Positions 23,439-43,416 of a DNA stretch of 64,000 bases are shown piece by piece. The first letter of the stretch is position 1. Each line of letters begins with the position of its first letter. Both the position numbers and the translations under genes were made by a program. This stretch comes from Candidatus Zambryskiibacteriota bacterium (GTDB lineage: Bacteria > Patescibacteriota > Minisyncoccia > Phycocordibacterales > WO2-35-19). The stretch is from positions 990 to 64,989 of the forward strand of contig JAFGCQ010000004.1 of NCBI GenBank assembly GCA_016932555.1, written 5' to 3'. The notes beneath the pieces were generated by a model, which saw only the letters and a list, made by a program, of their open reading frames with translations, had not been told where the DNA came from and did not search any database.

Positions 23439-23537
23439 CGAATATTACGAATAAGATCGAATAATACGAATCCTATTTTTGCTATTAATTTGATTGTTCT
23501 TTATTTGTAGCATTCGATTAAATTTGTGGTTATTCGC
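23439..23537. repeat. 99-bp intergenic repeat element (CGAATA-iteron type), copy A. It fills the rplN/rplX spacer.
   Basis: 98 of 99 positions are identical to 33288-33386. It contains TCGAATA units spaced 9-10 bp apart at one end and two inverted ATTCG units at the other. Confidence 0.9.
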
Positions 23538-23914
23538 TAGATGACTTCTGAAGCTAATGAAATAATGGCCTGATGGCCGGCCTCAGCAATTTCTCGAGGA
23601 ATAGGACCAAAGATTCTTCCTGCTCTTGGAGTAATTTCACCCTTCTTCTTATCTACTACAACTAATGCATTTTCATCAAATCGGATATAAGAACCATCTT
23701 TTCTGCGTAGTGGTGTCTTTTGGCGAATTACCATTCCTAATAGTACTGCTTTTTTCTTTATTTCTTTGCGAGGTTCAGCTTTTTGAACTGAAAATTTAAC
23801 CAGCTCGCCAATTCTAGCATAGCGCTTTTTAGAAGAACCTAATATTTTAAAAACCCGGCCGATTTTAGCACCTGAATTATCTGCTATTTTAACTATAGAA
23901 TTTGGCTGAATCAT
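23537..23914 (-). CDS. rplN: 50S ribosomal protein L14
   Basis: MIQPNSIVKIADNSGAK ... 125 aa. Confidence 0.9.
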   Translation of the reverse strand: MIQPNSIVKIADNSGAKIGRVFKILGSSKKRYARIGELVKFSVQKAEPRKEIKKKAVLLGMVIRQKTPLRRKDGSYIRFDENALVVVDKKKGEITPRAGRIFGPIPREIAEAGHQAIISLASEVI

Positions 23915-23940
23915 AATTTATGTTTTTACGATTTTACTAT

Positions 23941-24231
23941 TTACTTAATTATTATAAAATGCTTATCTTTTGATATTGGTTTAACTTCCTTGATTTCAAC
24001 TTTATCACCTATTTTCTTAGTATTACCAATATCATGGGTTTTATATTTTTTATTTACTTTGTAATATTTTCTGTATTTTTTATGTTTAACAAATCTTATT
24101 ACTGAAACCGTGCAAGTATCTTTCATTTTGTCTGATACTACAATACCCTTCAAGATTCTCGATCTGATTCCATTTTTCTTCTCTTCTGTTTTTTCTATTT
24201 TTTTATCCATAATTCTTAATTCATTATTCAT
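23941..24231 (-). CDS. rpsQ: 30S ribosomal protein S17
   Basis: S17 OB-fold core with an N-terminal extension. Confidence 0.85.
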   Translation of the reverse strand: MNNELRIMDKKIEKTEEKKNGIRSRILKGIVVSDKMKDTCTVSVIRFVKHKKYRKYYKVNKKYKTHDIGNTKKIGDKVEIKEVKPISKDKHFIIIK

Positions 24232-24406
24232 TATTTATCTTCGTCAAAATTCTAGCAATTTCTTTTTTCAGATTTTTCTGCCTTTTAACATCCTTACTTT
24301 TACTACCAGCTATACCAAATCTTATATCACGCAAGGCTAGCTTTTTTTCATCAAGCTCTTTTTGTAAATCTTGTGTGATATTTTTTTTTGGTTTTTCTTT
24401 TTTCAT
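24224..24406 (-). CDS. rpmC: 50S ribosomal protein L29
   Basis: 60-aa L29-like protein. Confidence 0.8.
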   Translation of the reverse strand: MKKEKPKKNITQDLQKELDEKKLALRDIRFGIAGSKSKDVKRQKNLKKEIARILTKINNE

Positions 24407-24413
24407 AATCGTC

Positions 24414-24434
24414 TTTTATTCGTATTATTCGATC
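24414..24434. repeat. Partial inverted copy of the CGAATA repeat (ttattcgtattattcgatcat) in the rplP/rpmC spacer
   Basis: Reverse complement of atgatcgaataatacgaataa. It matches the iteron end of the 99-bp repeat. Confidence 0.7.
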
Positions 24435-24444
24435 ATATTCACAG

Positions 24445-24864
24445 TTATTGGCGAGTAACTATTTTAGTTTTTACTGGCATTTTACAGCCACCTTTACGCA
24501 AAGATTCTCGGGCAATAATTTCCGAAGTGCTTTCAGCTTCAAAAAGAACTTGACCCGGTAAAATTCTTACTTGGTAACCTTCAATATCTCCTTTACCTTT
24601 ACCCATTTTCACTTCCGCCGGCTTTTTAGTAAAAGGCATATCTGGGAAAATACGGACCCAAACTCGGCCAGTTTTACCAAGATTTCGGCTAATAATTTTT
24701 CTAGCAGCTTCTATTTGATTAGAAGTAACTCGACCGGCAGAAATAGCTTTAAGACCATGTGAACCGAAAGAAATTTCTATCCCGCGAGTAGCTGGGCTTA
24801 TCTTGTTTGGATTTTTGCGCATTATATGCCATTTCCGATATTTAACTTTTTTAGGGAATAACAT
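24445..24864 (-). CDS. rplP: 50S ribosomal protein L16
   Basis: 139 aa, L16 pattern. Confidence 0.9.
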   Translation of the reverse strand: MLFPKKVKYRKWHIMRKNPNKISPATRGIEISFGSHGLKAISAGRVTSNQIEAARKIISRNLGKTGRVWVRIFPDMPFTKKPAEVKMGKGKGDIEGYQVRILPGQVLFEAESTSEIIARESLRKGGCKMPVKTKIVTRQ

Positions 24865-24895
24865 GATTTTAGGTTAATTGGTCAATTAAAATAAT

Positions 24896-25558
24896 TTATC
24901 CTTGCTTAGTAAAAATCTCACCCTTATAAATCCAAACCTTGATGCCAACTTTGCCGAGAGGCAATTTTGCTTCATAAAAAGCGTAATCAATGTCTGCCCG
25001 CAAAGTTTGCAAAGGAATTTGCCCAACCTTTTTACTCTCTACTCTAGCCATATTAGATCCTCCTAAGATACCAGAAAGAGTAATTTTCACACCTTTAACA
25101 TCACGGTTAGCAAAAGCTTTATCAATAATTGTTTTCATCACCCTACGAAAAGGCATCCTTTTTTCTAATCCTTCAGCTACCATCTGGGCAGCAATCATTG
25201 CACTAGACTCGGGTGACTTAACTTCTTTAATATCAATTTTTAATTCTTCGTTTAGATTAAATTTTTTGCGTTTTATAAAAACTAATATATCGCTTCTAAG
25301 TTTCTCCAACCCTTCACCATTGCGTCCAATAATAAAGCCGGGTCTAGATGATTCAATAATTATTCTAAAAGTTTTCACGCTTCTTTCTATTTCAATAGAA
25401 TTAACAAAAGATCCTTTCAAGCGTTTATATAAATATTCGTAAATTAAAACATCGCTTTTTAAATTTTCTTTATATTTATCTTTTACATCAAACCAGCGAG
25501 ACTTCCAATCACGAATGATGCCCAATCTATGAGAATATGGATGTACGGTGTGAGTCAT
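24896..25558 (-). CDS. rpsC: 30S ribosomal protein S3
   Basis: 220 aa with KH domain and S3 C-terminal domain. Confidence 0.9.
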   Translation of the reverse strand: MTHTVHPYSHRLGIIRDWKSRWFDVKDKYKENLKSDVLIYEYLYKRLKGSFVNSIEIERSVKTFRIIIESSRPGFIIGRNGEGLEKLRSDILVFIKRKKFNLNEELKIDIKEVKSPESSAMIAAQMVAEGLEKRMPFRRVMKTIIDKAFANRDVKGVKITLSGILGGSNMARVESKKVGQIPLQTLRADIDYAFYEAKLPLGKVGIKVWIYKGEIFTKQG

Positions 25559-25565
25559 AATAATA

Positions 25566-25913
25566 TTAGCTTTTAGTTTTTAATTCATCTGATAAAACAA
25601 GCTTAATTTTTGAGGTTCTTTTTTTGATGGGATGAGCAGCTCCATGAGCTACTGGGCGGCGCCTAAAAAGAGTTTGGCCTTTATTTACAGTGATCGATTT
25701 AATTTTCAAATTATCGGTTTCAATACCAATGTTTTTAGCATTAGCTAGAGCCGAATTTAAAAGCTTTTGCAAGGGGCCAGTGGTTTTTTTGGTAATAAAA
25801 TTTAGTCGATTTCTGGCTTCCTTTACTGACTTGCCTCGAATAGCATCTGCTACTAAACGGACTTTCCGAGGAGATTGGCGATAATTATTAAGCTGTGCTG
25901 CAACTTCAACCAT
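25566..25913 (-). CDS. rplV: 50S ribosomal protein L22
   Basis: KVRLVADAIRGKSVKEA motif. 115 aa. Confidence 0.9.
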   Translation of the reverse strand: MVEVAAQLNNYRQSPRKVRLVADAIRGKSVKEARNRLNFITKKTTGPLQKLLNSALANAKNIGIETDNLKIKSITVNKGQTLFRRRPVAHGAAHPIKKRTSKIKLVLSDELKTKS

Positions 25914-25918
25914 ATTTT

Positions 25919-26266
25919 TTATTTACCGCTAGTGTTTTCTGCAGCAGTTTTAGCAGCTTTAGCTTGATTTATTTCTTCTTCTTTCTTTTTAGCTTCAAGT
26001 TCTTTTTGCATCTTACCACCATGTTTGATGAATTTGCGGGTGGGAGAAAATTCGCCCAAGCGGTGTCCGACCATATCTTCACTGACTAAAACTTCGATGT
26101 GATCTTTCCCATTATGAACTCCAAAAGTAAAACCGACCATTTCTGGAGAAATTACACAAGATCTAGACCATGTTTTAATAACCTCGGTATCTTCCGGTTT
26201 TTTCCCTTCAATTTTTTTAAGAACCCTTACATCTACGTAAGGTCCTTTTTTTAGCGATCGAGACAT
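25919..26266 (-). CDS. rpsS: 30S ribosomal protein S19, with a K/E-rich C-terminal extension
   Basis: [12 protein letters not shown] ... HNGK ... GHRLGEF. The start is chosen at the internal Met matching the conserved S19 N-terminus. Confidence 0.85.
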
Positions 26267-26343
26267 TTTTTCAATATTAAACCCGCCTGGCGGGAATAGG
26301 TTATATACTAACAAATTAGGCCTCAAAGTCAATCCTTTTCTTA

Positions 26344-28023
26344 CTACATCTTATCAGGAACTTTGATAGCAAGGAGATTGAGACCAAATTTTAGAATGTT
26401 ATGAGTAGCTCGAGTGAGAGCGATTTTATAAGGCGAAGATAGGTCTTTTTCGTTTACTATCCTTTCTTTACCGTAAAAACTGTTAAAAGCTCCTGCTAAT
26501 TCGGTGAGATAAGTCACAATGTAATGTGGCGCATACTCCTCACCCGCCCTTTTGACTACTTCTGGAAATCGATAAATATATCTCTCAAGTTCAGTAATCT
26601 CAAAATCTTCCGGCCTTTTAGTTTTGGAATTTAAGAATTTGAATATTGTTTTGAAATTTGGATTTTGAAATTTGGATTTTTCAAGCACGGAGTTGGCTCG
26701 AACCGCTGTGTATTGTAAATACGGCCCTGAATCACCTTCAAAAGAAATGGATTTGTCAAAATCAAAAATAATGTCCCCGCCAATGGCTTGTTTCAGTATT
26801 GAATATTTAATAGCGCCAATTGCCACTATTTCGGAAATTTGCTTCTTTTCTTCTGGAGAAAGCTCTCTGTCCTTTAATTTTTCTTCCACTTTCATCTTTA
26901 TTTGATTAATTAAACTTTCAGCCATAATCACTTCTCCTGTCCTCGAAGACATCTTGCCGCCAGGTAAGCGCAACATACCGTGAGAGAGATGTAGCAGCTT
27001 GCCTTTAAGCTCAGGGAAAACTTCACCAATTGCTACCTCAACAACATCAAAAAAAGAATCTTGTTCATTGGCAGTAATGGTGATTGATTTATCATATATG
27101 TATTTCTCCTTTTTGAGCTTAGCGAGCCCTATTTCTTTAGCTTCGTAAGTGGGAATACCATCTGTATTTACAAAAACTCGAGTATGGGTCTTGGGCTTGA
27201 AATTTTCGCCGCGAAAAATTACCGCTCCATTCGATTTTTCAAATATTTTTTTTACCCCGTCATCTACATTAGCAGATTCTTCGGGGGACATGTTTTTTTC
27301 TACAATTTTTTTGCCCACTTGCCCAGCCTCACTTTCATAAAAATGAAAATCAAATTTACTACCTAACTGCTCATAAATTTTTTCAAAAGAATTCAGAGAG
27401 AACTTTTTACCCTCTTCATATAATTTATTTATTTTCGGATCAGATTTTTCGTAAATTTTTTTATTTATTTCTTTTATTTCCTCTTTATGATTCTCGTAAT
27501 TTATGCCGCCATAAACATAAGCTCCGCTCCAATCCAGCTCTGGTTTTTGAATTTTGCCCCAAATAGTCTTGGCCACATGAAGTCCCATGTCGCCGTGATA
27601 ACTTACTGGTATAGTTTTTGCTCCACTGACCTCTAAAATGCGTGTTATTGATTCACCAATAGCATTGTTCATTAAATGGCCGATATGAAATTCTTTGAAC
27701 GGATTAGGTGCTGTGTGGTCAATTAAAATTTTTCCTTTGCCCGATGTAGCTTTAGCGAATTTAGGTCCTTCTTTATTTATTTCGTTAACAGAGTCAGTAA
27801 AAAATTCTTTAGACAAATAAAAATTTATAAAGCCACCGACCCATTTCACTTTCTCTATTTCCGGAATTTTATGGTAAGAGAGCGGTTTACCGATTTCCTC
27901 AGCTTTATCTCCTGCAAAAAATGAAAAATCGCCATTTTGTAAATCCTTGGGATGCATTAGGATGATCTCTTCCATTTTAAGTTCTTTTTTAATCCAATCC
28001 TTTATCTTTTTTTGAATTTCCAT
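26344..28023 (-). CDS. argS: Arginine--tRNA ligase
   Basis: Class I HIGH motif (FHIGH), anticodon-binding DALR-like C-terminus. 559 aa. Confidence 0.85.
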
Positions 28024-28145
28024 ACTTTTATATTACCAATTTTTGATTCTAAAATCTTGTCTCATTATAGTTGACTAATTGTTATTAATATGGAGAATAC
28101 TATACGGAATAGATATTTGAAATAGGATATTTGAAAGGAGAAAAA

Positions 28146-29099
28146 ATGACAATAATCAAATATAAACCTTATCAAGAAAGATTGCTGGATTGGCAATATC
28201 AAAATTTGCTTAGATTTATTCGATGTTCATCTGAAACTTATCTTGCTAAAAATCCATATCAGGATAGAGGTCGTTGGACAAATTTAGAAACACCAAGAAT
28301 GGTTTTTAAATTTGAAAACGGTTTTCCTATAATTACTGAAAGAAAAATTTCTTTCTGGAAAACTGCCATTACAGAAATTATTCTTTTTTTAAACGGCGCC
28401 CGCAAATTTGAGGATATGTTAAAAGCCGGGTGCGGTTGGTGGGCTGAATGGACCTCATTGGAAAAATGTAAAGATTTGGGTCTTCAAGTTGGAGATTTGG
28501 GTCCGGGATCATATGGTCCAATTCTTCATAATTTACCAAATTTCGTATGGGATCAGCAACCATATGGTTGTTCAAGTTATAAAAATCAACCTTTCAATCA
28601 AATAGAACATCTGATTCAATCTCTCAAAGATGGGCCTGGACTTAATACCCATGTGATATCTACTTGGTATCCGCCGTTTGATATGCAACACAGCAAATTA
28701 CAGCGCCAAGTTTCGGTAGCGCCCTGCCATGGCACCAAAATGCAATTTACAGTAATCAATGGCAAAAAGCTTGTCTATACCATGACTCAGCGCTCTGGTG
28801 ATGTGCCGGTTGGTGTTGTCTCAAATATCATTCAGCATGCAGCACTTTGTATTATGGTAGCTCATGTCTGTAGATACGAGCCTTACAAATACATTCATGT
28901 CGTTGATGACGCTCAGATATACGAAAATCAAATAGAAAAAGTTGATGAGCTTTTAGACAGAATACCCTTTCGTTTACCCACTCTTCAACTCACCAAAGAG
29001 GGCCAAGAAATCAAAAATATTTTTGATTTCAAGGCCGATCACTTTGAACTTTCTGATTATGAATGTCATCCAGCTATGAAAATTCCAACTACACTTTAG
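28146..29099 (+). CDS. thyA: Thymidylate synthase (ThyA family)
   Basis: Active-site PCHG and the conserved Asn in SNIIQHAAL (dUMP-type). The start is set at the second ATG, which is preceded by AAAGGAG. Confidence 0.75.
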   Translation: MTIIKYKPYQERLLDWQYQNLLRFIRCSSETYLAKNPYQDRGRWTNLETPRMVFKFENGFPIITERKISFWKTAITEIILFLNGARKFEDMLKAGCGWWAEWTSLEKCKDLGLQVGDLGPGSYGPILHNLPNFVWDQQPYGCSSYKNQPFNQIEHLIQSLKDGPGLNTHVISTWYPPFDMQHSKLQRQVSVAPCHGTKMQFTVINGKKLVYTMTQRSGDVPVGVVSNIIQHAALCIMVAHVCRYEPYKYIHVVDDAQIYENQIEKVDELLDRIPFRLPTLQLTKEGQEIKNIFDFKADHFELSDYECHPAMKIPTTL

Positions 29100-29110
29100 A
29101 AAGGAAAGAT

Positions 29111-29692
29111 ATGTTATTGGGAAAAACTATCTCAATTATCTTTACCGCTCCCGTTTATGCTAAAAATAATCGTCTGATTATTGGCAATGGTAAATTTATT
29201 CCTTGGTTAGGTAAAGTTTCTTCAGATTTAAAGAGATTTAAAAAACTTACCTTAAATCAAACTGTGATTATGGGACGCAAAACCTGGGACTCTTTGGAAC
29301 ACAAACCTTTGCCAGATAGACAAAACATAATTCTTAGCAGAAACCCAGATATAATCTTCGAACCAAGCGATATTCCACTCAAAGATTGGACTTTTCTAGA
29401 AATAGGAGTGACCAAATCTTTTGAAAGTGCTATTTTAATGGCAAAATCTCAAACAGTATGGATAATAGGCGGTGCTGAAATTTACAAATTAGCTTTGCCT
29501 TATGTTGATTATATTCACAGAACTCTTATTTCTGGAAGATTTGATGGAGACATCTTCTTTCCAGAATATAACCTAAATGAATGGAGAAAAGATAAAGAAA
29601 AATCTATCTTTTTAAAAGCCAAAGAATTAGAAAATACGATGGATGAATATGATTCTTTTTATGAAGTTTTTGAAAGAAAGGAGGTGATATGA
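29111..29692 (+). CDS. folA: Dihydrofolate reductase
   Basis: IGNGKFIPW ... VIMGRKTWDSL ... WIIGGAEIY. The start is set at the ATG preceded by GAAAGGAAAG. Confidence 0.8.
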   Translation: MLLGKTISIIFTAPVYAKNNRLIIGNGKFIPWLGKVSSDLKRFKKLTLNQTVIMGRKTWDSLEHKPLPDRQNIILSRNPDIIFEPSDIPLKDWTFLEIGVTKSFESAILMAKSQTVWIIGGAEIYKLALPYVDYIHRTLISGRFDGDIFFPEYNLNEWRKDKEKSIFLKAKELENTMDEYDSFYEVFERKEVI

Positions 29693-30174
29693 CAGAAAAA
29701 AAAATAATGGAAATGATTCATGCCAGAGTCGATGCCCAGCGTAAAAAAATGGAAGAATGCATTCGTCTTGGTATATGTCCACTTTGTTGGGAAAATTTAG
29801 CAAAATGGCATAATGCTCCAATATTAAGATATGGAGATTTTTGGGCCATTACAGCTAATGATCATCCTTATGAAGGTACGAAAATTCATCTCTTGGCGAT
29901 TTATAAGCATCATATAAATTCAATTGACCAAGTAGAAGTAGCTGCAGAGAATGAACTTTTCAGACTTTTTTCTCTGTTCTGTAAAAAAAATAAAATTGTT
30001 GGTGCTTCGATATTAATGCGTACAGGTGAAATGAACTACACTGGAGCAACTTTGGCACATCTTCATGCCCATTTTATTTCTGGGGTTTCTAGAGAAGAAG
30101 TAGAGAAATTTTCAGAAATCAAATATCCAAATTCATTTATCATATCGGTTCTTGGTTACAAGATTCCGAAATGA
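29689..30174 (+). CDS. HIT-family (histidine triad) hydrolase
   Basis: HLHAHFI histidine-triad motif near the C-terminus. 161 aa. Confidence 0.7.
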   Translation: MTEKKIMEMIHARVDAQRKKMEECIRLGICPLCWENLAKWHNAPILRYGDFWAITANDHPYEGTKIHLLAIYKHHINSIDQVEVAAENELFRLFSLFCKKNKIVGASILMRTGEMNYTGATLAHLHAHFISGVSREEVEKFSEIKYPNSFIISVLGYKIPK

Positions 30175-30180
30175 AAATTA

Positions 30181-30211
30181 CCCCGCACTTTTTATAAAAG
30201 TGCGGGGCTTT
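30181..30211. terminator. Strong bidirectional Rho-independent terminator (CCCCGCACTTTT-loop-AAAAGTGCGGGG)
   Basis: 11-12-bp GC-rich stem between the convergent HIT and deaminase genes, followed by a T run. Confidence 0.7.
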
Positions 30212-31060
30212 TTATTTTTTCACTTTTAATATTTTGACTTCAGCAGCTTTTAAAGTCTCGAAGCCTTTAAGCACACTGTAGCCCTGATTAAAGATTAATC
30301 TTTTGATTTGGCATTTAGCTAACATACGAGCACAATCAGCACAAGGAAAATCTGTGACGTAAACTGTTGCACCCTTAAGAGAAATACCCTCGCGAGCACA
30401 GGTTGCAATGATTCCTTTTTCGGCGTGAAGTGATAGATAAATTTCAGATCCAGCTATATCGCCTGCATCAAAATTTATCCGCGGATCACTAAAAATTGCG
30501 GTTTCGTATTCGTTTGGATAATGCTTATTGTAGGCACAGGCAATCATCTTCCCGTCACGAAAAGCCAGAGCTCCAATTTGTCGCCACCAATCTGGTGATT
30601 TTTTACCGAGGTTAAAAGCTGCTATCATACGAAGAGTGTCGATTTCTTCGTAAGTTATCTCCATATCCGGCATAATTGGTTCTTGCCTTTTGACTGCAGT
30701 CATATCCCACCTAGCCCAGATCGGCTCAAATTTCACCTCACAATCACAATTTTTGAGATATTTCTCGGCAAAAACATGAGAAATATCCTCATCCGGCATT
30801 AAACAATCCTCTTCTATAGATATAGAATCTTCCAGAAAAAAAATTTTGACGGAGTTTTTTATAGACGGATTTCTTTTAAGACCGGAAATTATAGTGTAGA
30901 CATCAACTGCAGGCAAAGCGCAGATATTCCTTTTTAATCTGGGAATAAGAGCTTCTGCCAAATCTTGAGATATAAGATGCAAGTGAAAGGGCTCGTGGTC
31001 CTTAAGCCAAAGAAGATATTGCCGATTTATAACCGGCATATAGGCAATGAGATTATTCAT
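30212..31060 (-). CDS. dCMP/cytidine deaminase-domain protein with an unrecognised N-terminal domain of about 135 aa
   Basis: C-terminal HAEKG ... PCADC zinc-binding deaminase motifs. The N-terminal half matches nothing I recognise. Confidence 0.65.
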   Translation of the reverse strand: MNNLIAYMPVINRQYLLWLKDHEPFHLHLISQDLAEALIPRLKRNICALPAVDVYTIISGLKRNPSIKNSVKIFFLEDSISIEEDCLMPDEDISHVFAEKYLKNCDCEVKFEPIWARWDMTAVKRQEPIMPDMEITYEEIDTLRMIAAFNLGKKSPDWWRQIGALAFRDGKMIACAYNKHYPNEYETAIFSDPRINFDAGDIAGSEIYLSLHAEKGIIATCAREGISLKGATVYVTDFPCADCARMLAKCQIKRLIFNQGYSVLKGFETLKAAEVKILKVKK

Positions 31061-31646: not shown

Positions 31647-31806
31647 AACTCCTCCTTTCAAATCAAAGATTATTTCAAAATAACTCCTATCCAGTTTTCT
31701 ATCATAAACACAATTAAAAGACAAACCCCGATTGCAAATCTGCAATCGGAGTTATTTTAGAGTCTTGTTACTACCCTAAGTTCTTTAAGGTGGTGAACTG
31801 GGTTGT

Positions 31807-32736: not shown

Positions 32737-33282
32737 TTATATCTTCTTTACCTGCAAAAAGTCAAGCTCTACTGGAGTTTCGCGACCAAACATTGGGACC
32801 AAAACTTTAACCTTACCTTGTTCTTCATTAACTTCACCCACCTTGCCTTCCAAATCTTTAAAGGGTCCATCTATAATCCTTACTGATTCATCAAGAGAAA
32901 GATCAATATTATGTTTTACTTTATCAGAATGCATCCTGTTAAATAGCTCCTCTATTTCTTTTTTATCCAAAGGTACCGGAAAAACTCCAGCGCCAACAAA
33001 TCCTGTTACTCGAGGAGTGTTTCGAACCACATACCAAGAATCATCAGTTACAATCATATCTACCAGTACATAACCTGGATAAATTTTTTCTTCCTCTTCA
33101 ACTCGTTTATTACCCTTTATCTTGATCTTTTTTTCAGTTGGGACAATAACATCAAAAATTTTATCCTCCATACCCAAAGATTCTATGCGCTGTTTTAGAT
33201 TTCTCATTACAGCATTTTCATAACCAGAATAAGTATGAACAGCATACCAATTTCTTTCGCTTCTTATTTGTTGTTTGCTCAT
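32737..33282 (-). CDS. nusG: Transcription termination/antitermination factor NusG
   Basis: NGN domain [12 protein letters not shown] and C-terminal KOW. Confidence 0.9.
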
Positions 33283-33287
33283 ATGAT

Positions 33288-33386
33288 CGAATATTACGAA
33301 TAAGATCGAATGATACGAATCCTATTTTTGCTATTAATTTGATTGTTCTTTATTTGTAGCATTCGATTAAATTTGTGGTTATTCGC
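33288..33386. repeat. 99-bp intergenic repeat element (CGAATA-iteron type), copy B. It fills the secE/nusG spacer.
   Basis: 98 of 99 positions are identical to 23439-23537. Confidence 0.9.
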
Positions 33387-33389
33387 AGA

Positions 33390-33566
33390 TTAAATAAAGA
33401 AACTAAGAATTTTAGAAAATATAAAATCAAAAAAACCTAAAAATATAGACACCAAAATAGATATTACAACCACTACTATTGAAAAAATTATAGACTGTTT
33501 TCTAGTAGGCCAGTTAACATGAGAAAGTTCGTTTTTAGTTTCTTTTATGTAATTTGTTAAAGACAT
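33390..33566 (-). CDS. secE: Preprotein translocase subunit SecE (58 aa; below the ORF-track length cutoff)
   Basis: Minus-strand ORF MSLTNYIKETKNELSHVNWPTRKQSIIFSIVVVVISILVSIFLGFFDFIFSKILSFFI with a single TM helix. Conserved position upstream of nusG. TTGACA-17-TATTAT promoter upstream. Confidence 0.7.
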   Translation of the reverse strand: MSLTNYIKETKNELSHVNWPTRKQSIIFSIVVVVISILVSIFLGFFDFIFSKILSFFI

Positions 33567-33706
33567 AGTATAAATTTCTAATTTTAATTAATTCTATCAA
33601 AAAACCCCGTCTGGGGTTGTTTGATTATACTTCAATAATACACAAACCACAATTCTTGTCAAATTTATATTCATGACATTTGATCTCATTCACGGTTATT
33701 CGAGAG

Positions 33707-35363: not shown

Positions 35364-35366
35364 GAT

Positions 35367-36353: not shown

Positions 36354-36389
36354 ATTGAATTATTATTTTGTAATATTTTTATATTAACA

Positions 36390-38165
36390 TTAACTGAGCG
36401 GGATAGTAAAGAAGAAGCTTGAACCTATACCTTCTCTTGAAACCACTCCAACATTGCCACTGTGAGCTTCAGCAATGCCTTTAGCAATTACCAATCCTAA
36501 TCCTGTACCTTTACTTTCATCGTCAATCTGATCCATCTTAACCTGCTTGTAGGTTTGGAATAAATCTTTTAAATGATCTTGAGAAATACCTATTCCCGTA
36601 TCTGAAACTACAACACAAAGAGACGGTTTTCTTATTCTAAAATTAGAAATTTCGGGAAAAACCTTAAATTTATCCTTGTTTATGTTTATAGAAAAATTGC
36701 TTTTAGAATCTAGAGTAAAAGCAGAAACTAAAATAGAACCACCTTGGGAAGTAAATTTCATAGCATTGGAAATAAAGTTATTCAGGATTTGTTTAACTGC
36801 TTGAGGATCGAATTTGATTATTTCTGGAATATTTTCACTAAGAGAACTTTCTAGAGACAAATTTTTACTGTTAGCTGAAATTTTAAAGAAGGTGATTCTA
36901 TTTTCTATCACATTTTTTATGTTTGCATCTTCTTTGTTTATCTCAAATTTACCGGCCTGCAATTTAGAGAGATCTAGAATATCATTGACCATCTCCAGCA
37001 TAGACGATGAGCTTTGATGAGCCATGTTCAAATATTCTTTATACTCATCAGAATCGGCTTTGATAGAACCAGCAACCATAAGTTCTATAATTTTCTTTAT
37101 GCTATCTAGAGGTGATCGGAGTTCGTGAACAATCATAGAAGTGAATTCTTCTCTGACTTTTTCAAGTTCTATGTCATGAGTAATATCATGAAAAACTACT
37201 ACTGCTCCAAGGTTTTTGTTTTTATTTTTTTCTGGAGAATGGACTACTGGATAAACGCCAATTTCAAAAAATGTATTATCAATTTCTATTCTTTTTGAAA
37301 TATAGGGCTCATTTTTAGAAATAGCTTCTTCTAAACGGCCATGAATATCAAATTTGCCCCCTAAATTATCTACAAAATCAAAAATGCTCAAAACTTTATC
37401 CTTTTCAGAATAATTAAAATTTATAATTCTCTTAACTGCCGGGTTGGCGACTACTATTCTATATTCCGGATCAACCATTAAAACTCCATCGCCCATACTT
37501 TCAACCATAGCATTCAATTTACCCTGCTCTATTTTAACTACTTCTTGCAACCTAGAAACTGCTTCTGAAGCTTGTCCTGTAATTTTGTAGAGGATAGTCA
37601 TATCTTCCTCTTTATAAAGACCGGTTTCTGTATGAGCAATAGTTAAAACACCAGCCACTTGACCACTAATAACTAATGGAATATTAAATAAGGAACCGAC
37701 TTTCTTTTTTACTTCATCTACGATAATAGCTCCCGAAATTACTTCATCAAAATCTGAAAGTTTTATATTTTTATTAGTTAAAGCAGAAAGAGAAGCCGCC
37801 ATGCTTTTTTTTATATCATTTAAAAACTTGTAGTTAACGGATTTTTCAATATGAATATTTACTTTTATCTTTTCAGGAGTAGTGACCGCATAACCCACAG
37901 CTGTGTAATCAATAAATTGAATGAGTGAGCCAGTAATAATTTGTAATATTTCTTCAACATTTAAAGAATAGCCCGCCCTTACACCTAACTCTTTAAGAAT
38001 AGACAGTTCATAAAGTCGGCGACTAGATTCTTCTCTTTCCTTAACAATAGCTTTTTTTTGGTTTATTAAATAAAAAATCAAATAAAAAACTAGGCCTAAA
38101 AGTACTAATAGGCCTACTAGACACGAAATTAGAGTGCCTGAAGAAAAAGCTAGCATTTTAGACAT
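36390..38165 (-). CDS. Sensor histidine kinase (TM + PAS/GAF-like + HisKA + HATPase_c)
   Basis: H-box MIVHELRSPL, N/G1/G2 boxes (DTGIGIS, GTGLGL). Confidence 0.85.
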   Translation of the reverse strand: MSKMLAFSSGTLISCLVGLLVLLGLVFYLIFYLINQKKAIVKEREESSRRLYELSILKELGVRAGYSLNVEEILQIITGSLIQFIDYTAVGYAVTTPEKIKVNIHIEKSVNYKFLNDIKKSMAASLSALTNKNIKLSDFDEVISGAIIVDEVKKKVGSLFNIPLVISGQVAGVLTIAHTETGLYKEEDMTILYKITGQASEAVSRLQEVVKIEQGKLNAMVESMGDGVLMVDPEYRIVVANPAVKRIINFNYSEKDKVLSIFDFVDNLGGKFDIHGRLEEAISKNEPYISKRIEIDNTFFEIGVYPVVHSPEKNKNKNLGAVVVFHDITHDIELEKVREEFTSMIVHELRSPLDSIKKIIELMVAGSIKADSDEYKEYLNMAHQSSSSMLEMVNDILDLSKLQAGKFEINKEDANIKNVIENRITFFKISANSKNLSLESSLSENIPEIIKFDPQAVKQILNNFISNAMKFTSQGGSILVSAFTLDSKSNFSININKDKFKVFPEISNFRIRKPSLCVVVSDTGIGISQDHLKDLFQTYKQVKMDQIDDESKGTGLGLVIAKGIAEAHSGNVGVVSREGIGSSFFFTIPLS

Positions 38166-38595
38166 TCATTACGCCTTTGAGTAGTTTATTAGCACCAACA
38201 ACCATAAAAATATACCCCATTGCAAAAAAGGCGGTGCTTATAATATTAAACCAGATACCAGGGAACCAAGAGTTCATGAAAACCGCAATAGTGCCTAAGA
38301 CAATAAATAACATCCCCAAGCTGATAAAATTCAAGATAGAACCAAAAAGACCTCCTTTAAGCTTTTTAACTGCCCTAAAAACCAAATAAGTAGCAATAAG
38401 ACCAATAACAACAGAAAGTAATAACGAAAGATCACTAGTAAAACGAGAAGCATAAGCGATACCATCATTAGAAATGGAAAAATTAACTTGTTGGGCTAAA
38501 ACTAATTTCGGTGAGATGATTCCTATCATACTTATCAATAAAAACTTCTTCATTTTGTTAGAAGCCTTTATTTTTTTGTTTTTTTGCTTTTTCAT
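38158..38595 (-). CDS. Membrane protein, hypothetical
   Basis: 145 aa with signal peptide and multiple TM helices. Confidence 0.4.
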   Translation of the reverse strand: MKKQKNKKIKASNKMKKFLLISMIGIISPKLVLAQQVNFSISNDGIAYASRFTSDLSLLLSVVIGLIATYLVFRAVKKLKGGLFGSILNFISLGMLFIVLGTIAVFMNSWFPGIWFNIISTAFFAMGYIFMVVGANKLLKGVMNV

Positions 38596-38647
38596 TTTTG
38601 TTTAACCCGTTAGTTTTTTAGTCTCTAACGGGATTCATATTTTTTAT

Positions 38648-38920
38648 TTACTTATTAAATTGAATTGATGGATATTTTTCAAAAATAGAGTTGACAGCAT
38701 TTCTAACAATTTCACCAGAAAGCGCTACATATTCATCTATCAATTTCTGCAATATCGCTTGTTCAGAATCGTTAATCTCAGTTACTTCTCCATCGTCAGT
38801 AACTTTTAAACCCTGAATATTTCGAGCTTTAAGTACTGCAATTTGCGGACCCAAAATAACAATTTGTTTCTTGATAATTTCAGTCAATATTTGTTTGTAA
38901 TCTACATTTTGATTATCCAT
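38648..38920 (-). CDS. hypothetical protein
   Basis: 90-aa ORF with no recognisable motif. Confidence 0.3.
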   Translation of the reverse strand: MDNQNVDYKQILTEIIKKQIVILGPQIAVLKARNIQGLKVTDDGEVTEINDSEQAILQKLIDEYVALSGEIVRNAVNSIFEKYPSIQFNK

Positions 38921-39026
38921 TCCGTTTTTAAATTAGGTGGTAATGTGTTATTTACATTATATCAAAATAATTCTCTTGCATTTTGTTGTTGTGGATTGCT
39001 CAAACAAAAATAGGGTCTATATCTTG

Positions 39027-39099
39027 GGGTGACTAGCCGGATTCGAACCGGCGAAGACGGCTCCACAAACCGTCGTGTTACCACTACACCATAGTCACC
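39027..39099 (-). tRNA. tRNA-His (anticodon GTG)
   Basis: Acceptor GGTGACT/AGTCACC, anticodon stem ACGGT/GCCGT with loop TTGTGGA, T arm GCCGG-TTCGAAT-CCGGC. No genomically encoded G-1. Confidence 0.75.
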
Positions 39100-39146
39100 A
39101 TAAAAACTTTAATATTCTGACACAAAAAACTTCAATTTGCCAGATT

Positions 39147-39797
39147 TTAAAGGTAATCCGGCGACTCTTCCGCAATACCTACTTTATGATTAGCATAGCG
39201 AGCCAAAGCGTAAAGAGCACTTGAAAGCCGATTGATATAAGCTTTAGTTTGTTTACTAATATGTTTTTTATGGTTTTCGGGCTTATTATCATTTTGGGAT
39301 ATTGGTAATTCTGGCTGTAATACTTCTTCCGATAAGGTAATTATTCTCCTTTCGGCCCTGCGAGCAATAGTGCGAGCAATATCAAAGAGAGTACTGAGCC
39401 CCGCTCCACCAAGCTGCCATTTGGTCATTTCTGCCGAACCACCAGCAATAAAAAAAGAATTTACTGGTGATAATTCTTTTTCAATTTCATCTATAATATC
39501 TTCTAGTTCTTTAACTTTTGTTTTATCAATTCTATTATTATTACCCCAAACTTCAGATTGGATTATGAAAAGATTCTTCTGCATTTCATGAACAATTTCT
39601 GCTAAAGTTCTTTTTCCCAATTTATAATCCAGATGGATAGACTGAACTTTACAAAGCCCTAAAAAAGAATTGATTTCATCTAATACACCAAGAGCTTCAG
39701 CGGTAGTTGAACTTTTAGCGATTCTTTGATCGCAACCCCAGTTCATTTTGCCATTATTCCCATTTTTTATGTAAAGCATATATTTAAATAAATCCAC
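39147..39797 (-). CDS. PduO-type ATP:cob(I)alamin adenosyltransferase-family protein
   Basis: VLDEINSFLGLC and C-terminal YINRLSSALYALARY patterns. Confidence 0.55.
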   Translation of the reverse strand: MDLFKYMLYIKNGNNGKMNWGCDQRIAKSSTTAEALGVLDEINSFLGLCKVQSIHLDYKLGKRTLAEIVHEMQKNLFIIQSEVWGNNNRIDKTKVKELEDIIDEIEKELSPVNSFFIAGGSAEMTKWQLGGAGLSTLFDIARTIARRAERRIITLSEEVLQPELPISQNDNKPENHKKHISKQTKAYINRLSSALYALARYANHKVGIAEESPDYL

Positions 39798-39841
39798 AAT
39801 TAAAAACCAGTAAGAAAATTTCTTATTAAATTTTGGAGTTA

Positions 39842-40081
39842 TTAAACTTTGTTAACTTCAGTCCCTTCCTTAACCAGATTATCTACCTTCATACCAACGA
39901 CATCACCAGCAGAAGCTTTCTCTACCGACTTGTGTTCAACCTGAAGTGAAGCTATTTCTTGCTCAAAATCAGCACCATGGCCCTCAAATTTGATTTTATC
40001 ACCAATCTTAATTGAAGCTTCAAGCTCGATAATAGCAACTCCAATATTATTAAAATAATGTATTACTTTCCCGACCTTCAT
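39842..40081 (-). CDS. Small hypothetical protein (EF-Tu domain-2-like beta-barrel?). The start is uncertain: TTG at 40081 or an in-frame ATG at 40108.
   Basis: 79-88-aa ORF. A TATAAT box sits 7 nt upstream of the TTG start. Confidence 0.35.
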   Translation of the reverse strand: MKVGKVIHYFNNIGVAIIELEASIKIGDKIKFEGHGADFEQEIASLQVEHKSVEKASAGDVVGMKVDNLVKEGTEVNKV

Positions 40082-40112
40082 AATAAGTGATTATACCACA
40101 AAAATTGCATAT

Positions 40113-40208
40113 GTGGTCTTTGTGCTCGGGACAGGACTTGCACCTGCACGTCTTACGACACACGCACCTCAAGCGTGCCTGGCTACTAAATTACAGCACC
40201 CGAGCATT
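40113..40208 (-). ncRNA. Candidate structured small RNA / 5' leader. GC-rich, with its own sigma70-like promoter.
   Basis: Minus-strand promoter TTGAAA (40242-40237), 16 nt spacer, TATACT (40220-40215). Transcript of about 95 nt enclosed by an 8-bp helix TGCTCGGG...CCCGAGCA. Internal GUAA-tetraloop hairpin with symmetric AGGUGC/AGGUGC internal loop. Confidence 0.4.
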
Positions 40209-40245
40209 CATTTTAAAGTATAGCTACTTTCCCAGGTTTTTCAAA

Positions 40246-40268
40246 TTTAAAATCACCCCTCGGGGTGA
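40246..40268 (-). terminator. Rho-independent terminator after rplS
   Basis: ATCACCCC-GA-GGGGTGAT stem followed by TTTT on the minus strand. Confidence 0.7.
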
Positions 40269-40272
40269 TCCT

Positions 40273-40752
40273 TTATTCTGATTTTTCTTCAGTTTTTTCC
40301 TCTGTTCCATTATCTGCTTTAGCAGATTCTTCAGAATCATTTACTTTTGTTTGTGTGTTTGTGTCAAATTCTTCTTCTACTTCAGGTACTTCCTTGATAT
40401 TTCTCATTTGCCTTCTAACTTCCTTGGTTGCCTTTTCGCGGATATGATAAAGCTTGGCGCGGCGGACCTTAGATCTTTTTATCACTTCTATTTTTTCAAT
40501 AGCTGGAGAATAAATTGGAAATATTCTTTCTACTCCTACTCCGCTAGCCATTTTACGAATAGTGAGAGTACCTCCAGCTTCTTTGCCATGCTTTACTGCC
40601 AAACAAAGACCTTCAAAATCTTGCAGGCGAGTTTTCGGCTTACCGGTTTTTTTATCCTTTTCAACAATTTTTTGAGTCACACAAATAGTATCTCCAGAAC
40701 GAATATCTAAGTTTTTGCGTTTCTCTATGTCTATTGGTGATATCTTGATCAT
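40273..40752 (-). CDS. rplS: 50S ribosomal protein L19, with an acidic C-terminal extension
   Basis: GDTICVTQKIVE ... RLQDFEGLCLAVKHG ... GVERIFPIYSPAIEKIEV. Unusual location directly after rplB. Confidence 0.8.
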   Translation of the reverse strand: MIKISPIDIEKRKNLDIRSGDTICVTQKIVEKDKKTGKPKTRLQDFEGLCLAVKHGKEAGGTLTIRKMASGVGVERIFPIYSPAIEKIEVIKRSKVRRAKLYHIREKATKEVRRQMRNIKEVPEVEEEFDTNTQTKVNDSEESAKADNGTEEKTEEKSE

Positions 40753-40824
40753 AATTTTTATTTTAAGTTTTCGAATTATGAATCTTGAATTATGCTTAAT
40801 TCTTAATTCATACCTCTTGCCTGA

Positions 40825-41673
40825 CTAGTGTTTCTTCCCCACTTTTCTTCGACTGACGATAAACTTCTCTGAATATTTCTTGGGCGATCTGGTTTTTTGA
40901 CCTTTGCCAGTCGGTTTACCCCATTTAGAAACAGCTCTCCTTCGGCCGCGACCCTGTCTCCCCTCACCACCACCATGCGGATGATCAACCGGATTTTGGG
41001 CGGTGCCTCTAACAGTTGGTCTTATGCCTTTCCATCGGCTTTTGCCAGCTTTACCATAATTTTCAAGTTTTTTTTCTTCATTAGAAACTTCTCCGACACT
41101 GGCCCAGCAAGTTTCTTTAACCTTTCTAACCTCAGACGATGGCATTTTGAGATCTACCATTCCAGCGTCTTTAGCAATTACTTGAACGAAATTACCAGCA
41201 CTGCGAGCAATTTTGGCTCCACTTTTGGGTTTTAGTTCAACATTATAAATAAAAGTGCCAATTGGAATATCTTTAAGCGGCATTCGATTGCCCGTTTTTA
41301 TTTCTGCTCCTTCGGCTGTTAAAAACTCCTCGTTAAGATTTATACCTTTAGGTAAAAGTATATATTTTTTTTCACCATCTCTATAAATTACAAGACCAAT
41401 AAAACCAGTGCGATTTGGGTCATATTCTATAGAAGTTACTCTGTAAGGAATACCAATTTTGTTATATTTAAAATCAACTTCTCTAAAAAGCCTTTTGTTT
41501 CCTGACCCTTTGTGGCGAGTAGTAATCCGACCAGCATTATTTCTGCCAACTGCTCTTTTGCGTCCAAAAGTTAAAGATTTTTCTGGTTTGGTTTTAGTTA
41601 GTAAAGACTTATAAAACACATTGGCCATATGCCTTCTGGATTTAGTTTTTGGTTTGTATTTTTTGATGCTCAT
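40825..41673 (-). CDS. rplB: 50S ribosomal protein L2
   Basis: 282 aa, C-terminal GGGEGR motif. Confidence 0.9.
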   Translation of the reverse strand: MSIKKYKPKTKSRRHMANVFYKSLLTKTKPEKSLTFGRKRAVGRNNAGRITTRHKGSGNKRLFREVDFKYNKIGIPYRVTSIEYDPNRTGFIGLVIYRDGEKKYILLPKGINLNEEFLTAEGAEIKTGNRMPLKDIPIGTFIYNVELKPKSGAKIARSAGNFVQVIAKDAGMVDLKMPSSEVRKVKETCWASVGEVSNEEKKLENYGKAGKSRWKGIRPTVRGTAQNPVDHPHGGGEGRQGRGRRRAVSKWGKPTGKGQKTRSPKKYSEKFIVSRRKVGKKH

Positions 41674-41711
41674 TTTATTTTCTTATTTCGTAACTCTTAA
41701 CTCGTATCCCG

Positions 41712-41999
41712 TTACTCTATCTTATCTCCTTTTTTCAGATAAACATAAGCTTTTTTCACTCCTGATTTGGTACCTTTTTTACCTCGTATAAAAACTCGCT
41801 TTGTTGGATTCTTAACAATATTAATTTTTATAGGCTTAATTTTGTAAAAAACTTCAATAGCTTTAGCAATTTGGTTTTTAGTGGCCTCTGAAGAAACCTC
41901 GAAGGTATGGGTATTCGCTTCTGCAGCTAAATTAGCCTTTTCAGTAATTCTAGGTCTTAAAATAATATTTGCGTATTTTGCTTTTAAATCTTTCATCAT
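41712..41999 (-). CDS. rplW: 50S ribosomal protein L23
   Basis: 95 aa, L23 pattern. Confidence 0.85.
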   Translation of the reverse strand: MMKDLKAKYANIILRPRITEKANLAAEANTHTFEVSSEATKNQIAKAIEVFYKIKPIKINIVKNPTKRVFIRGKKGTKSGVKKAYVYLKKGDKIE

Positions 42000-42008
42000 G
42001 TTTAAATT

Positions 42009-42677
42009 TTATTTAAGCTTTAAAGATAAAATTTCAATTGATTTTTTTGGATTAACAATAATAAGGTTCCTATATTGAAGCAAATCTAAAATATTCAAAT
42101 CTTTCACTTGTCCAATCTTCAGATTACTAAAATTACCGAAGCTCTTTAAAATATTGTTATCTTTTTCTCCCAAAATTAAAAAGCATGCATTTTTTCTTCC
42201 CTTCAACGAATCAAATCCTTTAATTTTAGTTAATGAAGTCAAGATGTTTTTAGCTTCTTTAGCTTTCGGCTCTTTAAAGACAAAATTGTCAATTAAAATA
42301 ATTTCGCCATCGCTAAGTTTTTTAGAAAGTATACTGAAAAGCGCTTTGACCTTCATTTTTTTATTTATTTTTCTAGAATAATTTTTGTCAGCTCTGGGTC
42401 CGTGAGCTACACCGCCGCCGATCCAGATAGGTGACCGGCGAGAACCATGCCTAGCTTGACCAGTACCTTTTTGTTTCCAAGGCTTCCTGCCAGTACCGGA
42501 AACTTCACCTCGAATCTTAGCGTGAGCGGTACCAGTACGTTTATTCGTCATCATGGAATCCACCATTTGACGAACCAGTCTTTCAGTTTTGGTATTCCAA
42601 GATAAACCAAAAACTTCTAGGGGAAGTTTTATTTCTCCTGTTTCTTTCCCTTCTTGATTGTAAATTTTTGCTTCCAT
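42009..42677 (-). CDS. rplD: 50S ribosomal protein L4
   Basis: 222 aa, L4 pattern. Confidence 0.9.
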   Translation of the reverse strand: MEAKIYNQEGKETGEIKLPLEVFGLSWNTKTERLVRQMVDSMMTNKRTGTAHAKIRGEVSGTGRKPWKQKGTGQARHGSRRSPIWIGGGVAHGPRADKNYSRKINKKMKVKALFSILSKKLSDGEIILIDNFVFKEPKAKEAKNILTSLTKIKGFDSLKGRKNACFLILGEKDNNILKSFGNFSNLKIGQVKDLNILDLLQYRNLIIVNPKKSIEILSLKLK

Positions 42678-42713
42678 AATTTTAATCTCGAGTTACGATA
42701 AACAAGTCAAGAG

Positions 42714-43346
42714 TTACGATTTCGAATTTCGTGTTTCGTTACTCACATTTTTTACTTCAACTAATGTTCCTCTTCTACCGGGTATTGCTCCAGAGACCAA
42801 TAAATTGTTGTTCTCCATATCAATACCTACTACTTTAAGATTTTTAACTGTTATTCTTTTACCTCCCATGCGACCAGCCATTCTAGTACCTTTAAGAACT
42901 CTTTGTACACCACCAACTCCGATAGAACCCGGTTCTCTTTCAGAATGTTTCTGGCCATGAGTACGGGGACCACCATGAAAACCATGTCTCTTCACAACCC
43001 CCTGAAAACCTTTAGCTTTAGATATGGCTGAAACAGCAACAGTATCTCCTATTTCAAAAATATCAGCTAAAATCTTTTCATTTTTTTTGAATTCTATATT
43101 TTCTACTCTAAACTCCTTAAGAACAGCTGGTTTTAATTCTCCCAAGTGGCCCTTAAGCGGTTTAGAGATTTTGTTCTCCTTGCGATAGCCGAAAGCGACT
43201 TGAACAGCATTATAGCCATCTTTTTCGTTAGTTTTGATGAAAGAGACTACATTAGGTTCCACGTTCAAAACAGTCACCGGAGTCACTCTGTTATCTTCCC
43301 CAAAGATTTGGGTCATATTTACCTTTTTGGCCAATAAAAATTTCAT
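42714..43346 (-). CDS. rplC: 50S ribosomal protein L3
   Basis: MKFLLAKKVNMTQIF conserved N-terminus. Confidence 0.9.
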   Translation of the reverse strand: MKFLLAKKVNMTQIFGEDNRVTPVTVLNVEPNVVSFIKTNEKDGYNAVQVAFGYRKENKISKPLKGHLGELKPAVLKEFRVENIEFKKNEKILADIFEIGDTVAVSAISKAKGFQGVVKRHGFHGGPRTHGQKHSEREPGSIGVGGVQRVLKGTRMAGRMGGKRITVKNLKVVGIDMENNNLLVSGAIPGRRGTLVEVKNVSNETRNSKS

Positions 43347-43365
43347 GCTACAAATTTCCACAAAT

Positions 43366-43416
43366 TAGATCGAATGATACGAATAAAGACTTTTTTATTC
43401 GCGCGAATAAAAAATG
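43366..43416. repeat. Cluster of CGAATA/TATTCG motifs, including the 16-bp perfect palindrome TTATTCGCGCGAATAA, in the rpsJ/rplC spacer. Partial member of the 99-bp repeat family.
   Basis: gatcgaatgatacgaata matches copy B of the repeat. It is followed by the palindrome and another ccgaataaa. Confidence 0.7.

Follow-up and report, generated by a model that had tools for sequence, protein, structure and literature searches.

Why would two highly conserved operons of a reduced genome carry virtually the same piece of non-coding DNA between neighboring genes? The question is raised by a 64,000-nt stretch of contig JAFGCQ010000004.1 (hereafter the window), which comes from the metagenome-assembled genome (MAG) of an uncultivated groundwater Candidatus Zambryskibacteria bacterium (Patescibacteria). 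Here a 100-nt repeat fills the spacer between rplN and rplX and, almost unchanged, that between secE and nusG. Based on sequence comparisons, we conclude that this repeat is a two-armed palindromic member of a cassette family that extends across Zambryskibacteria and other Paceibacterota. We further propose, with slightly better than even confidence, that the arm adjoining the start codon is a compact promoter for a leaderless mRNA, serving as an internal promoter for rplX and nusG.

A repeat with mirrored arms between operon genes

Gene identities were assigned with Pfam; rplN, rplX, secE and nusG all lie on the minus strand (Table 1). Pairwise alignment delimits a block of 100 nt that is identical between the two spacers at 99 positions, the sole mismatch being T/C in gene sense. 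The edges of the block are sharp, and in the flanking DNA only the TATG of the start codon aligns; a repeat search of the window returned 23431-23537 against 33280-33386 at 96%. In gene sense, each block consists of a distal arm (CGAAT, CAAAT, CGAAT, CAAAT), a 31-nt AT-rich core and a proximal arm of four ATTCG pentamers spaced 9, 10 and 9 nt, with 4-5 nt separating the last one from the ATG. On the plus strand this reads as four CGAAT units at 9/10/9 bp, with ATTTG/ATTCG/ATTTG/ATTCG as the four inverted units of the other arm. The original prediction, made from the letters of the window, had described a 99-bp pair (98/99 identical) that fills each spacer from the upstream stop codon to 5 nt before the downstream start, with phased CGAAT units, an AT-rich core, two inverted ATTCG units and a MITE-like layout (MITE, miniature inverted-repeat transposable element) with short terminal inverted motifs. 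The near-identity, the filling of both spacers and the layout were confirmed, the ends being CGAATA...TATTCG and the arms mirrored arrays. The details shifted slightly: the block is one nucleotide longer, both copies end 4 nt before the ATG, copy 1 begins at the upstream stop codon while copy 2 begins 3 nt past it, and the inverted units number four instead of two.

Near-identical copies on a metagenome-assembled contig could reflect an assembly duplication, a possibility that the original prediction had itself named. An independent Logan assembly of run SRR13394437 speaks against it, since one of its contigs stops 29 nt into the element downstream of rplN, and a second contig begins inside the element and carries the copy-2-specific base beside nusG, so that the element is entered from both sides. 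In addition, unique conserved genes in the correct order flank each copy on both sides, and a distant genome (L005; handles of this form denote loci from other genomes) carries the same kind of element in its rplN-rplX spacer. An artefact can thus be dismissed for practical purposes.

A conserved module in front of unrelated genes

We scanned one genome per species with the pattern RAATWNGATCGAATRATACGAAT and obtained 18 loci, 16 of which lie in 11 Patescibacteria MAGs labelled Zambryskibacteria, Paceibacterota or Parcubacteria; the two others (Lederbergia and Rikenellaceae) lack flanking units and resemble chance matches. A profile search added copies, including a second one in L007 that precedes rpmE, and diverged members were found before rplK in L036 and in the ribosomal spacers of L041. 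All searches together place family members in about 14 other Patescibacteria genomes, with arrays occurring about once per 8-20 kb in these loci.

The shared feature is a module spanning about 38 nt. Its four ATTCG pentamers recur every 9-10 bp, a TAnnnT hexamer lies between the third and the fourth of them, and an ATG comes 4-5 nt after pentamer 4. Its common form, in gene sense, is ATTCGTATCATTCGATCAWATTCGTTATAATTCGTATC-ATG, with a 10-nt period, TATAAT as the hexamer and the ATG 4 nt after unit 4. In 10 of the 18 loci the start codon follows the search pattern at a distance of 14-15 nt, at positions that the pattern leaves unconstrained, and the TAnnnT hexamer is present in nearly all ATG-linked copies. 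Pentamers are invariant and spacers variable, also in copies that had not been selected by the pentamer pattern (L036, the second L007 copy and arm B of L011), and at least 23 nt of the arm are identical across genomes of about 35% to 46% GC. The downstream genes are unrelated to each other (dnaX, ftsQ-like, rplX, pheS, rplI, hsp20, permease, oxidoreductase and ogt-like). Given this diversity, we consider it a coincidence that rplX and nusG both encode KOW proteins.

Individual members provide further detail. The upstream gene in L003 and L004 has a terminator-like hairpin that directly borders the module, and any promoter for the downstream gene must therefore sit inside the 38-mer. In L013 (7625-7690) and L020 (6046-6120), a hairpin-capable insertion of 21-32 nt parts the first three pentamers from the TATAAT-pentamer 4-ATG portion, so the upstream and downstream halves of the module are separable. 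The rplS (L19) gene of L041 ends in a C-terminal tail, ELDTNTQMEANDTNEE, encoded by four in-frame CGAAT/CAAAT units (4520-4592), and the array appears to have been absorbed into coding sequence. A metagenome scan with the AT-rich core of the window copies, TTTTTGCTATTAATTTGATTGTTC, gave one chance match only, inside an unrelated coding region (L025).

A candidate promoter for leaderless mRNAs

A Shine-Dalgarno (SD)-like motif precedes 7 of 91 genes in the window (by a crude gene call), and strong TATAAT-like hexamers concentrate 6-8 nt upstream of the ATG, where 20 of 86 genes have one; any other position has about one. Because SD motifs are rare and -10 hexamers peak this close to the start codon, we infer that many mRNAs of this genome are leaderless. 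A TGn extension is present on many of these -10-like boxes (TGnTAnnAT). The TAATAT of both element copies, 8 nt before the ATG, falls within the genome's positional peak of -10 boxes. It is this combination, a conserved 38-nt module at a fixed distance from the ATG in a genome that seems largely leaderless, that leads us to the promoter proposal. The proximal arm would start a leaderless mRNA at the ATG, and rplX(-rplE) and nusG(-rplK) would gain their own transcription start within otherwise tightly packed operons. The pentamers, which span about -39 to -5, are probably contacts and could be recognized by an oligomeric DNA-binding protein or by RNA polymerase itself. Insertion of the element would be tolerated, presumably because a leaderless promoter of its own would restore downstream expression; otherwise, 100 nt would strand the downstream gene in an SD-poor genome.

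Two other promoter-related arrangements were noted. The secE leader (33600-33660) contains a TTGACA-17-TATAAT promoter, followed by a hairpin that resembles a terminator (CCCCnnnnGGGG with a run of T) and lies about 40 nt 5' of the secE ATG; both are kept in the window and five relatives (L032, L035, L036, L037 and L038). This hairpin may be an attenuator for secE-nusG, in which case the inserted element would let nusG bypass it. Separately, ACGACACTAAT(N2-3)ACAAAT followed by CGAAT units stands 5' of unrelated genes, namely a gatA-like gene in the window (7080-7110, minus strand), an RNase T-like gene in L021 (955-1005) and the gene after nusG in L037 (795-830), and may constitute a second promoter-type motif of the clade.

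Several observations weigh against the promoter proposal. Unlike many other promoters of this genome, the window copies have no TGn extension at the -10 box, and their -35 region (TCGTAT/TTCGTA) is a poor match to TTGACA, although TTGACA-17-TATAAT promoters do occur in the clade. The array in front of rplC has no -10 box at the right distance. Arrays in the opposite orientation, without a usable -10, stand 3-31 nt before the ATGs of rpmC in the window, rplX in L021, rplS in L041 and a GxxExxY gene in L007, as well as in L009, so a purely directional promoter is insufficient as an explanation. No transposase and no binding protein came to light among the window genes or in the neighborhood of the arrays, target-site duplications were not seen, and promoter activity and leaderless starts are themselves deduced from the sequence. 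Two rival explanations, an operator array and a selfish element, therefore stay alive.

In the first of these, the phased ATTCG/CGAAT pentamers would bind a conserved regulator of ribosomal-protein and other growth-related genes, probably a repressor since the sites span -39 to -5; the two arms would form a symmetric operator, and the sites would have spread solely by ordinary regulon turnover. This explanation overlaps with a promoter and differs from it mainly in the role of the pentamers. Invariant pentamers with variable spacers and 9-10 bp phasing suit an operator, as do arrays upstream of genes in both orientations. All six array sites of the window lie in spacers of ribosomal-protein or secE-nusG operons, and about half of the downstream genes in the family are translation-related (rplX twice, nusG, rplC, rplK, rplI, rpmE, rplO and pheS). 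However, the others (dnaX, ftsQ-like, hsp20, permease, oxidoreductase, ogt-like) share no common theme, and no candidate regulator gene was found next to any array. The original prediction had suggested binding sites for a regulator of ribosomal protein operons; as a possibility this holds, given the setting of the six sites, but the binder was not found. Taken together with the gain and loss of sites described below, we consider an operator array unlikely, though not negligibly so.

Two further identities were rejected. The original prediction had also called the repeat iteron-like, a label that fails if plasmid-type or replication iterons are meant, as the arrays occupy many gene-proximal sites with no rep or dnaA gene next to them. 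Partial resemblance to DnaA, LexA and Spo0A boxes misfits the phased direct-repeat layout and was set aside.

The second arm is a DNA-level inverted repeat

A second arm is present in eight elements (window copies 1 and 2, L005, L011, L014, L015, L019 and L007/L012) and absent from about half of the family members. The arms face outward in all eight, even between co-directional genes, where the distal arm then points antisense into the upstream gene. Arm-to-arm distance ranges from 0 to 35 nt; L007/L012 instead have a 132-aa GxxExxY gene (TIGR04256, 75 bits; PD-(D/E)XK-type) placed exactly between a distal-type and a proximal-type array (L007 5647-6045, minus strand; L012 501-890). Its neighbors are a peptidoglycan-hydrolase-like gene and rpmE, and ATTCG units form the last codons of its open reading frame (ORF). 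By tblastn, the gene lies between arms at this one orthologous locus only, and it was rejected as an autonomous partner.

According to the original prediction, the CGAAT and ATTCG units could pair into a long bipartite stem in the mRNA. This was not borne out by folding the minus strand, since the mRNA-sense fold is no better than that of shuffled sequences for the window copies (z -0.7 and -1.0), L005 (-0.2) or L014 (+0.1). The antisense (+) strand does fold well, through G-U pairs (-26.3 kcal/mol, z -2.8 for copy 1; -31.9 kcal/mol, z -4.7 for copy 2), and L011 and L015 fold well on both strands (z -3.4 to -4.7), with a mirrored CAAAT/ATTTG pair in L015. These folds would suit a structured cis-acting RNA, either a hairpin of the polycistronic transcript or a small antisense RNA, that regulates translation or stability of rplX and nusG. 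Besides the mRNA-sense result, the missing second arm in about half of the family argues against such an RNA, as does the finding that arms of one element are no more similar than arms from different elements. Rfam contributed no match: at gathering thresholds it identified only tRNAs in the window, a permissive scan of the spacers gave chance-level matches only, and no RNA gene was found downstream of arrays lacking an ATG. A functional RNA is thus highly improbable, and we attribute the symmetry to an inverted repeat at the DNA level, not to a conserved RNA structure. The distal arm, a decayed mirror image, has no evident role by itself.

Gain and loss at orthologous sites

The secE-nusG spacer measures 0-18 nt and is without the element in six relatives (L032, L034, L035, L036, L037 and L038; NusG 88-91% identical), which makes copy 2 a lineage-specific insertion. 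Likewise, the rplP-rpmC spacer is an empty 6-8 nt in four relatives (L021-L024), so that the decayed inverted arm found there in the window is also a recent gain. At rplN-rplX, the distant L005 (L14 71% identical) carries an element that has two arms and a core unlike that of the window, L021 (L14 90% identical) has four inverted units only, and L022-24 (L14 90% identical) have one unit, ATACGAAA, in a 15-nt spacer. This distribution fits an old element that would have decayed in some lineages. In the rpsJ-rplC spacer, the four units of the window correspond to just one in L041, which also carries a distal-type array immediately behind the rpsJ stop codon. Recent mobility, one of the two explanations that the original prediction gave for the near-identity of the copies, therefore applies to copy 2 and the rplP-rpmC partial arm, whose sites are empty in relatives; the rplN-rplX copy, retained there whole or as remnants, looks ancestral.

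Both window copies have the same core, which bears no relation to the cores of other genomes; duplication within this genome is therefore recent. Most simply, copy 2 would be a recent copy of copy 1, with the old rplN-rplX element presumably having been copied into a previously empty secE-nusG spacer. The 99/100 identity, which includes the non-conserved core, does not look like the outcome of binding-site turnover. It counts against the operator array, as do orthologous sites that come and go between relatives with 90% identical L14.

The same gains bear on the second rival, a selfish MITE-like element. Such an element would be a non-autonomous palindrome with CGAATA/TATTCG at its termini and phased subterminal repeats recognized by a transposase; it would serve no function for the host, and its placement at start codons would simply reflect the tiny spacers of the genome. 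Empty sites in close relatives and abrupt block boundaries are consistent with this, and so are the outward arm arrangement in all eight two-armed copies, decayed single arms and solo units that resemble remnants, and the GxxExxY gene between two arms in L007 and L012. That association is, however, a single orthologous locus. No target-site duplication was found at either copy, the flanks (element edges marked by slashes) being CTA/G...A/GAGT for copy 1 and TCT/G...A/TCAT for copy 2, without a consistent direct repeat. Pfam detected no transposase among about 50 window ORFs and no transposase or transcription factor next to arrays, and the density of arrays given above suggests a low copy number. 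Two properties of the module argue for selection on function: the identity of its arm across genomes of different GC content, and an ATG offset that stays fixed even with non-tiny spacers and an abutting terminator. A purely selfish element is, in our judgement, decidedly unlikely.

Partial copies and other features of the window

The window holds two full and about four partial copies in 64 kb. The 17-mer GATCGAATRATACGAAT occurs exactly at 23455, 33304 and 43368 on the plus strand and at 24418 on the minus strand, and nine matches with up to three mismatches were found where 0.44 are expected. The hexamer CGAATA alone is not over-represented (41 found, 32 expected; 8 of 100 shuffles reach 41), and significance is limited to clustered arrays. 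Six matches to the 17-mer in a scan of viral contigs lack flanking units and are consistent with chance.

The partial copies that the original prediction had placed at rpsJ-rplC and rplP-rpmC are real, each containing the exact 17-mer, as are the GC hairpin after rpsJ and the TATTCG stretch near 33690-33705. The latter resembles a distal arm (CGAATAACCGTGAAT versus CGAATAACCACAAAT) and is absent in L032, L035 and L036. A palindrome predicted near 43396 also exists, with a length of 24 bp where 16 bp had been given. The rplC array has units in common with each of the two arms of the full element; a clear -10 box is missing from the 6-8 nt position.

Table 1. Repeat copies, their parts and related features in the window (positions are those of the 64,000-nt stretch).
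Feature	Position	Strand	Basis or remark
rplN	23537-23914	-	Pfam
rplX (L24), gene putatively served by copy 1	23212-23433	-	Pfam
secE	33390-33566	-	Pfam
nusG, gene putatively served by copy 2	32737-33282	-	Pfam
Full element copy 1, fills rplN-rplX spacer	23438-23537	-	99/100 identity, abrupt boundaries
Proximal arm copy 1: four ATTCG, then AGAGT and rplX ATG	23439-23471	-	47-nt family profile, E=1e-10
TAATAT hexamer, putative -10 box, 8 nt before rplX ATG	23442-23447	-	Positional peak of -10-like hexamers
AT-rich core copy 1; same in copy 2, not conserved in other genomes	23472-23502	-	
Distal arm copy 1: CGAAT/CAAAT/CGAAT/CAAAT (gene sense), no -10-like hexamer	23503-23536	-	
Full element copy 2, fills secE-nusG spacer	33287-33386	-	Lineage-specific insertion; site empty in six relatives
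Proximal arm copy 2; TAATAT at 33291-33296, 8 nt before nusG ATG	33288-33320	-	
Distal arm copy 2	33352-33385	-	
Array directly 5' of rplC ATG: ATTCG, ATTCG, ATTTG, ATTTG, then TAGC-ATG	43347-43384	-	E=1e-11
24-bp perfect palindrome TTTTTTATTCGCGCGAATAAAAAA, two units head to head	43391-43414	.	
GC-rich hairpin just 3' of rpsJ stop, no U-tract	43458-43481	-	Rfam matches sub-threshold only
Decayed single arm, rplP-rpmC spacer, antisense-pointing (ATTCG, ATTCG, ATTCA, ATTGG)	24414-24444	+	
Distal-arm-like piece CGAATAACCGTGAATGAGATCAAAT, right after SIMPL-domain gene stop, upstream of secE promoter	33680-33706	-	
Degenerate proximal module cttATTAGtaatATTCGtgca-ATG before rplO-like gene	60150-60172	-	

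The S10/spc ribosomal cluster is divided into three pieces, running from tuf through rpsJ and rplCDWB to rplS (45131-40273), from rpsS to rplE (26266-22666) and from an rpsN-like gene to rplO-secY (62349-58453); the break after rplE is common to relatives L021-L024. Other repeats in the window are of different kinds. A 52-nt inverted repeat (57653-57704 and 58405-58456, 85% complementary) surrounds a 161-aa ORF with a weak DUF5680 match and adjoins a DUF559 endonuclease-like gene, with 57306-57656 (plus strand) as a further part of this region; this unit could be a different small mobile cassette. Inverted repeats of the AAGCTTAGAGCT type at 12220-12399 and 7638-7682 (31-45 nt, 76-87% complementary) form another family, with no relation to the CGAAT arrays. 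At the right edge of the window, a reverse transcriptase (RT) of 334 aa (62420-63424, minus strand; Pfam RVT_1 9.9e-25, PADLOC RT 1.8e-46) is divergent from an Avd-like protein (63425-63808, plus strand; NCBIfam DivGenRetAVD, 67 bits, below the cutoff of 80), and the pair is probably a diversity-generating retroelement. The two repeat copies were considered as its template/variable repeat pair and rejected, as they have a single difference, are both intergenic and lie 29-39 kb from the RT/Avd pair.

Implications for Patescibacteria

Almost nothing is known about the promoters and regulators of Patescibacteria (Candidate Phyla Radiation), and a full-text literature search turned up no publication that deals with leaderless promoters or with intergenic repeats in this group. 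A 38-nt motif at a fixed distance from start codons in many genomes is a concrete, testable candidate for such a signal. It could aid transcription-unit annotation in these genomes, supply portable promoters for genetically tractable Patescibacteria and be used as bait for a binding protein. The insertions also illustrate that even the most conserved operons, S10/spc and secE-nusG, accept new DNA in these reduced genomes. It is conceivable, if doubtful, that Paceibacterota possess a hitherto undescribed, portable promoter-operator unit in which four phased ATTCG are bound by a lineage-specific oligomeric protein and combined with a leaderless -10 box. If true, copying this unit into tight operon spacers would change how the translation machinery is expressed: nusG-rplK would be uncoupled from the secE leader, and rplX-rplE from the S10/spc genes that precede them. 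It would constitute the first cis-regulatory code for an uncultivated radiation, and a new way in which mobile DNA is tolerated inside ribosomal operons.

Comparison with known systems

Operators made of phased repeats, such as MraZ boxes, CtsR heptad repeats and PhoB/PhoP boxes, consist of three or four short direct repeats with a period of about 10-11 bp that overlap the core promoter. The proteins that recognize them are oligomeric or bind in tandem, and the regulons are small and functionally coherent. The window arrays differ from them in motif sequence, in being copied together with a non-conserved core and in coming and going between relatives. Short imperfect palindromes between co-directional operon genes are represented by REP/BIME, ERIC and RUP, which act mainly as transcribed RNA structures or are mobilized by RAYT/IS-type enzymes. 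Unlike these, the window family has no structure signal in the mRNA sense, and no associated enzyme was found.

The definition of a MITE is partly matched. A non-coding element of 100 nt with inverted ends and arms of four mirrored units has the expected size and terminal repeats, and empty sites exist in relatives at secE-nusG (6) and rplP-rpmC (4). A target-site duplication is lacking at both copies, and the window contains no autonomous partner; the sole cargo between arms is the GxxExxY gene, at one orthologous locus.

The Correia elements (CREE) of Neisseria are palindromic, intergenic sequences (about 70-157 bp) in which inverted ends enclose a core; they can generate promoters at one or both ends, are often located 5' of genes, vary in presence between strains and leave end fragments (PMC2649163). 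They exceed 100 copies per genome, their sigma-70 promoters derive partly from target sequence, they bind IHF, and RNase III cleaves their RNA hairpins (PMC2649163). The window element is likewise palindromic, intergenic, present or absent between relatives and promoter-like at its end. It has no sequence similarity to CREE, whose consensus ends (PMC2649163) are unrelated to CGAATA, and its host belongs to the Patescibacteria and not to Neisseria. Further differences are its apparently low copy number, an arm that holds the whole promoter-like module, arms built of phased 5-bp units, an mRNA-sense hairpin that is not significant and no evidence of RNA-level processing.

Putative mobile promoters (PMPs) are similar non-coding stretches found 5' of non-homologous genes (Matus-Garcia, Nijveen and van Passel, Nucleic Acids Res 2012, PMC3488235). 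Their upstream genes are non-homologous too, conservation begins a few nucleotides before the start codon, and some families are common to several genera; they are recognized as more than 50 nt at 80% identity or above, with flanking coding sequences that do not align (PMC3488235). With 100 nt at 99/100 identity, and with nothing similar beyond the TATG between rplN/rplX and secE/nusG, the two window copies agree with this description, and the TAATAT 8 nt before the ATG, inside the -10 peak, hints indirectly at promoter activity. PMPs are an operational class without a defined architecture or mechanism, whereas phased pentamers, a palindromic second arm, a leaderless geometry and a location inside Patescibacteria ribosomal-protein operons are specific to the window element. 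We regard it as a variant of mobile-promoter and MITE-like palindromic repeats with a distinctive architecture.

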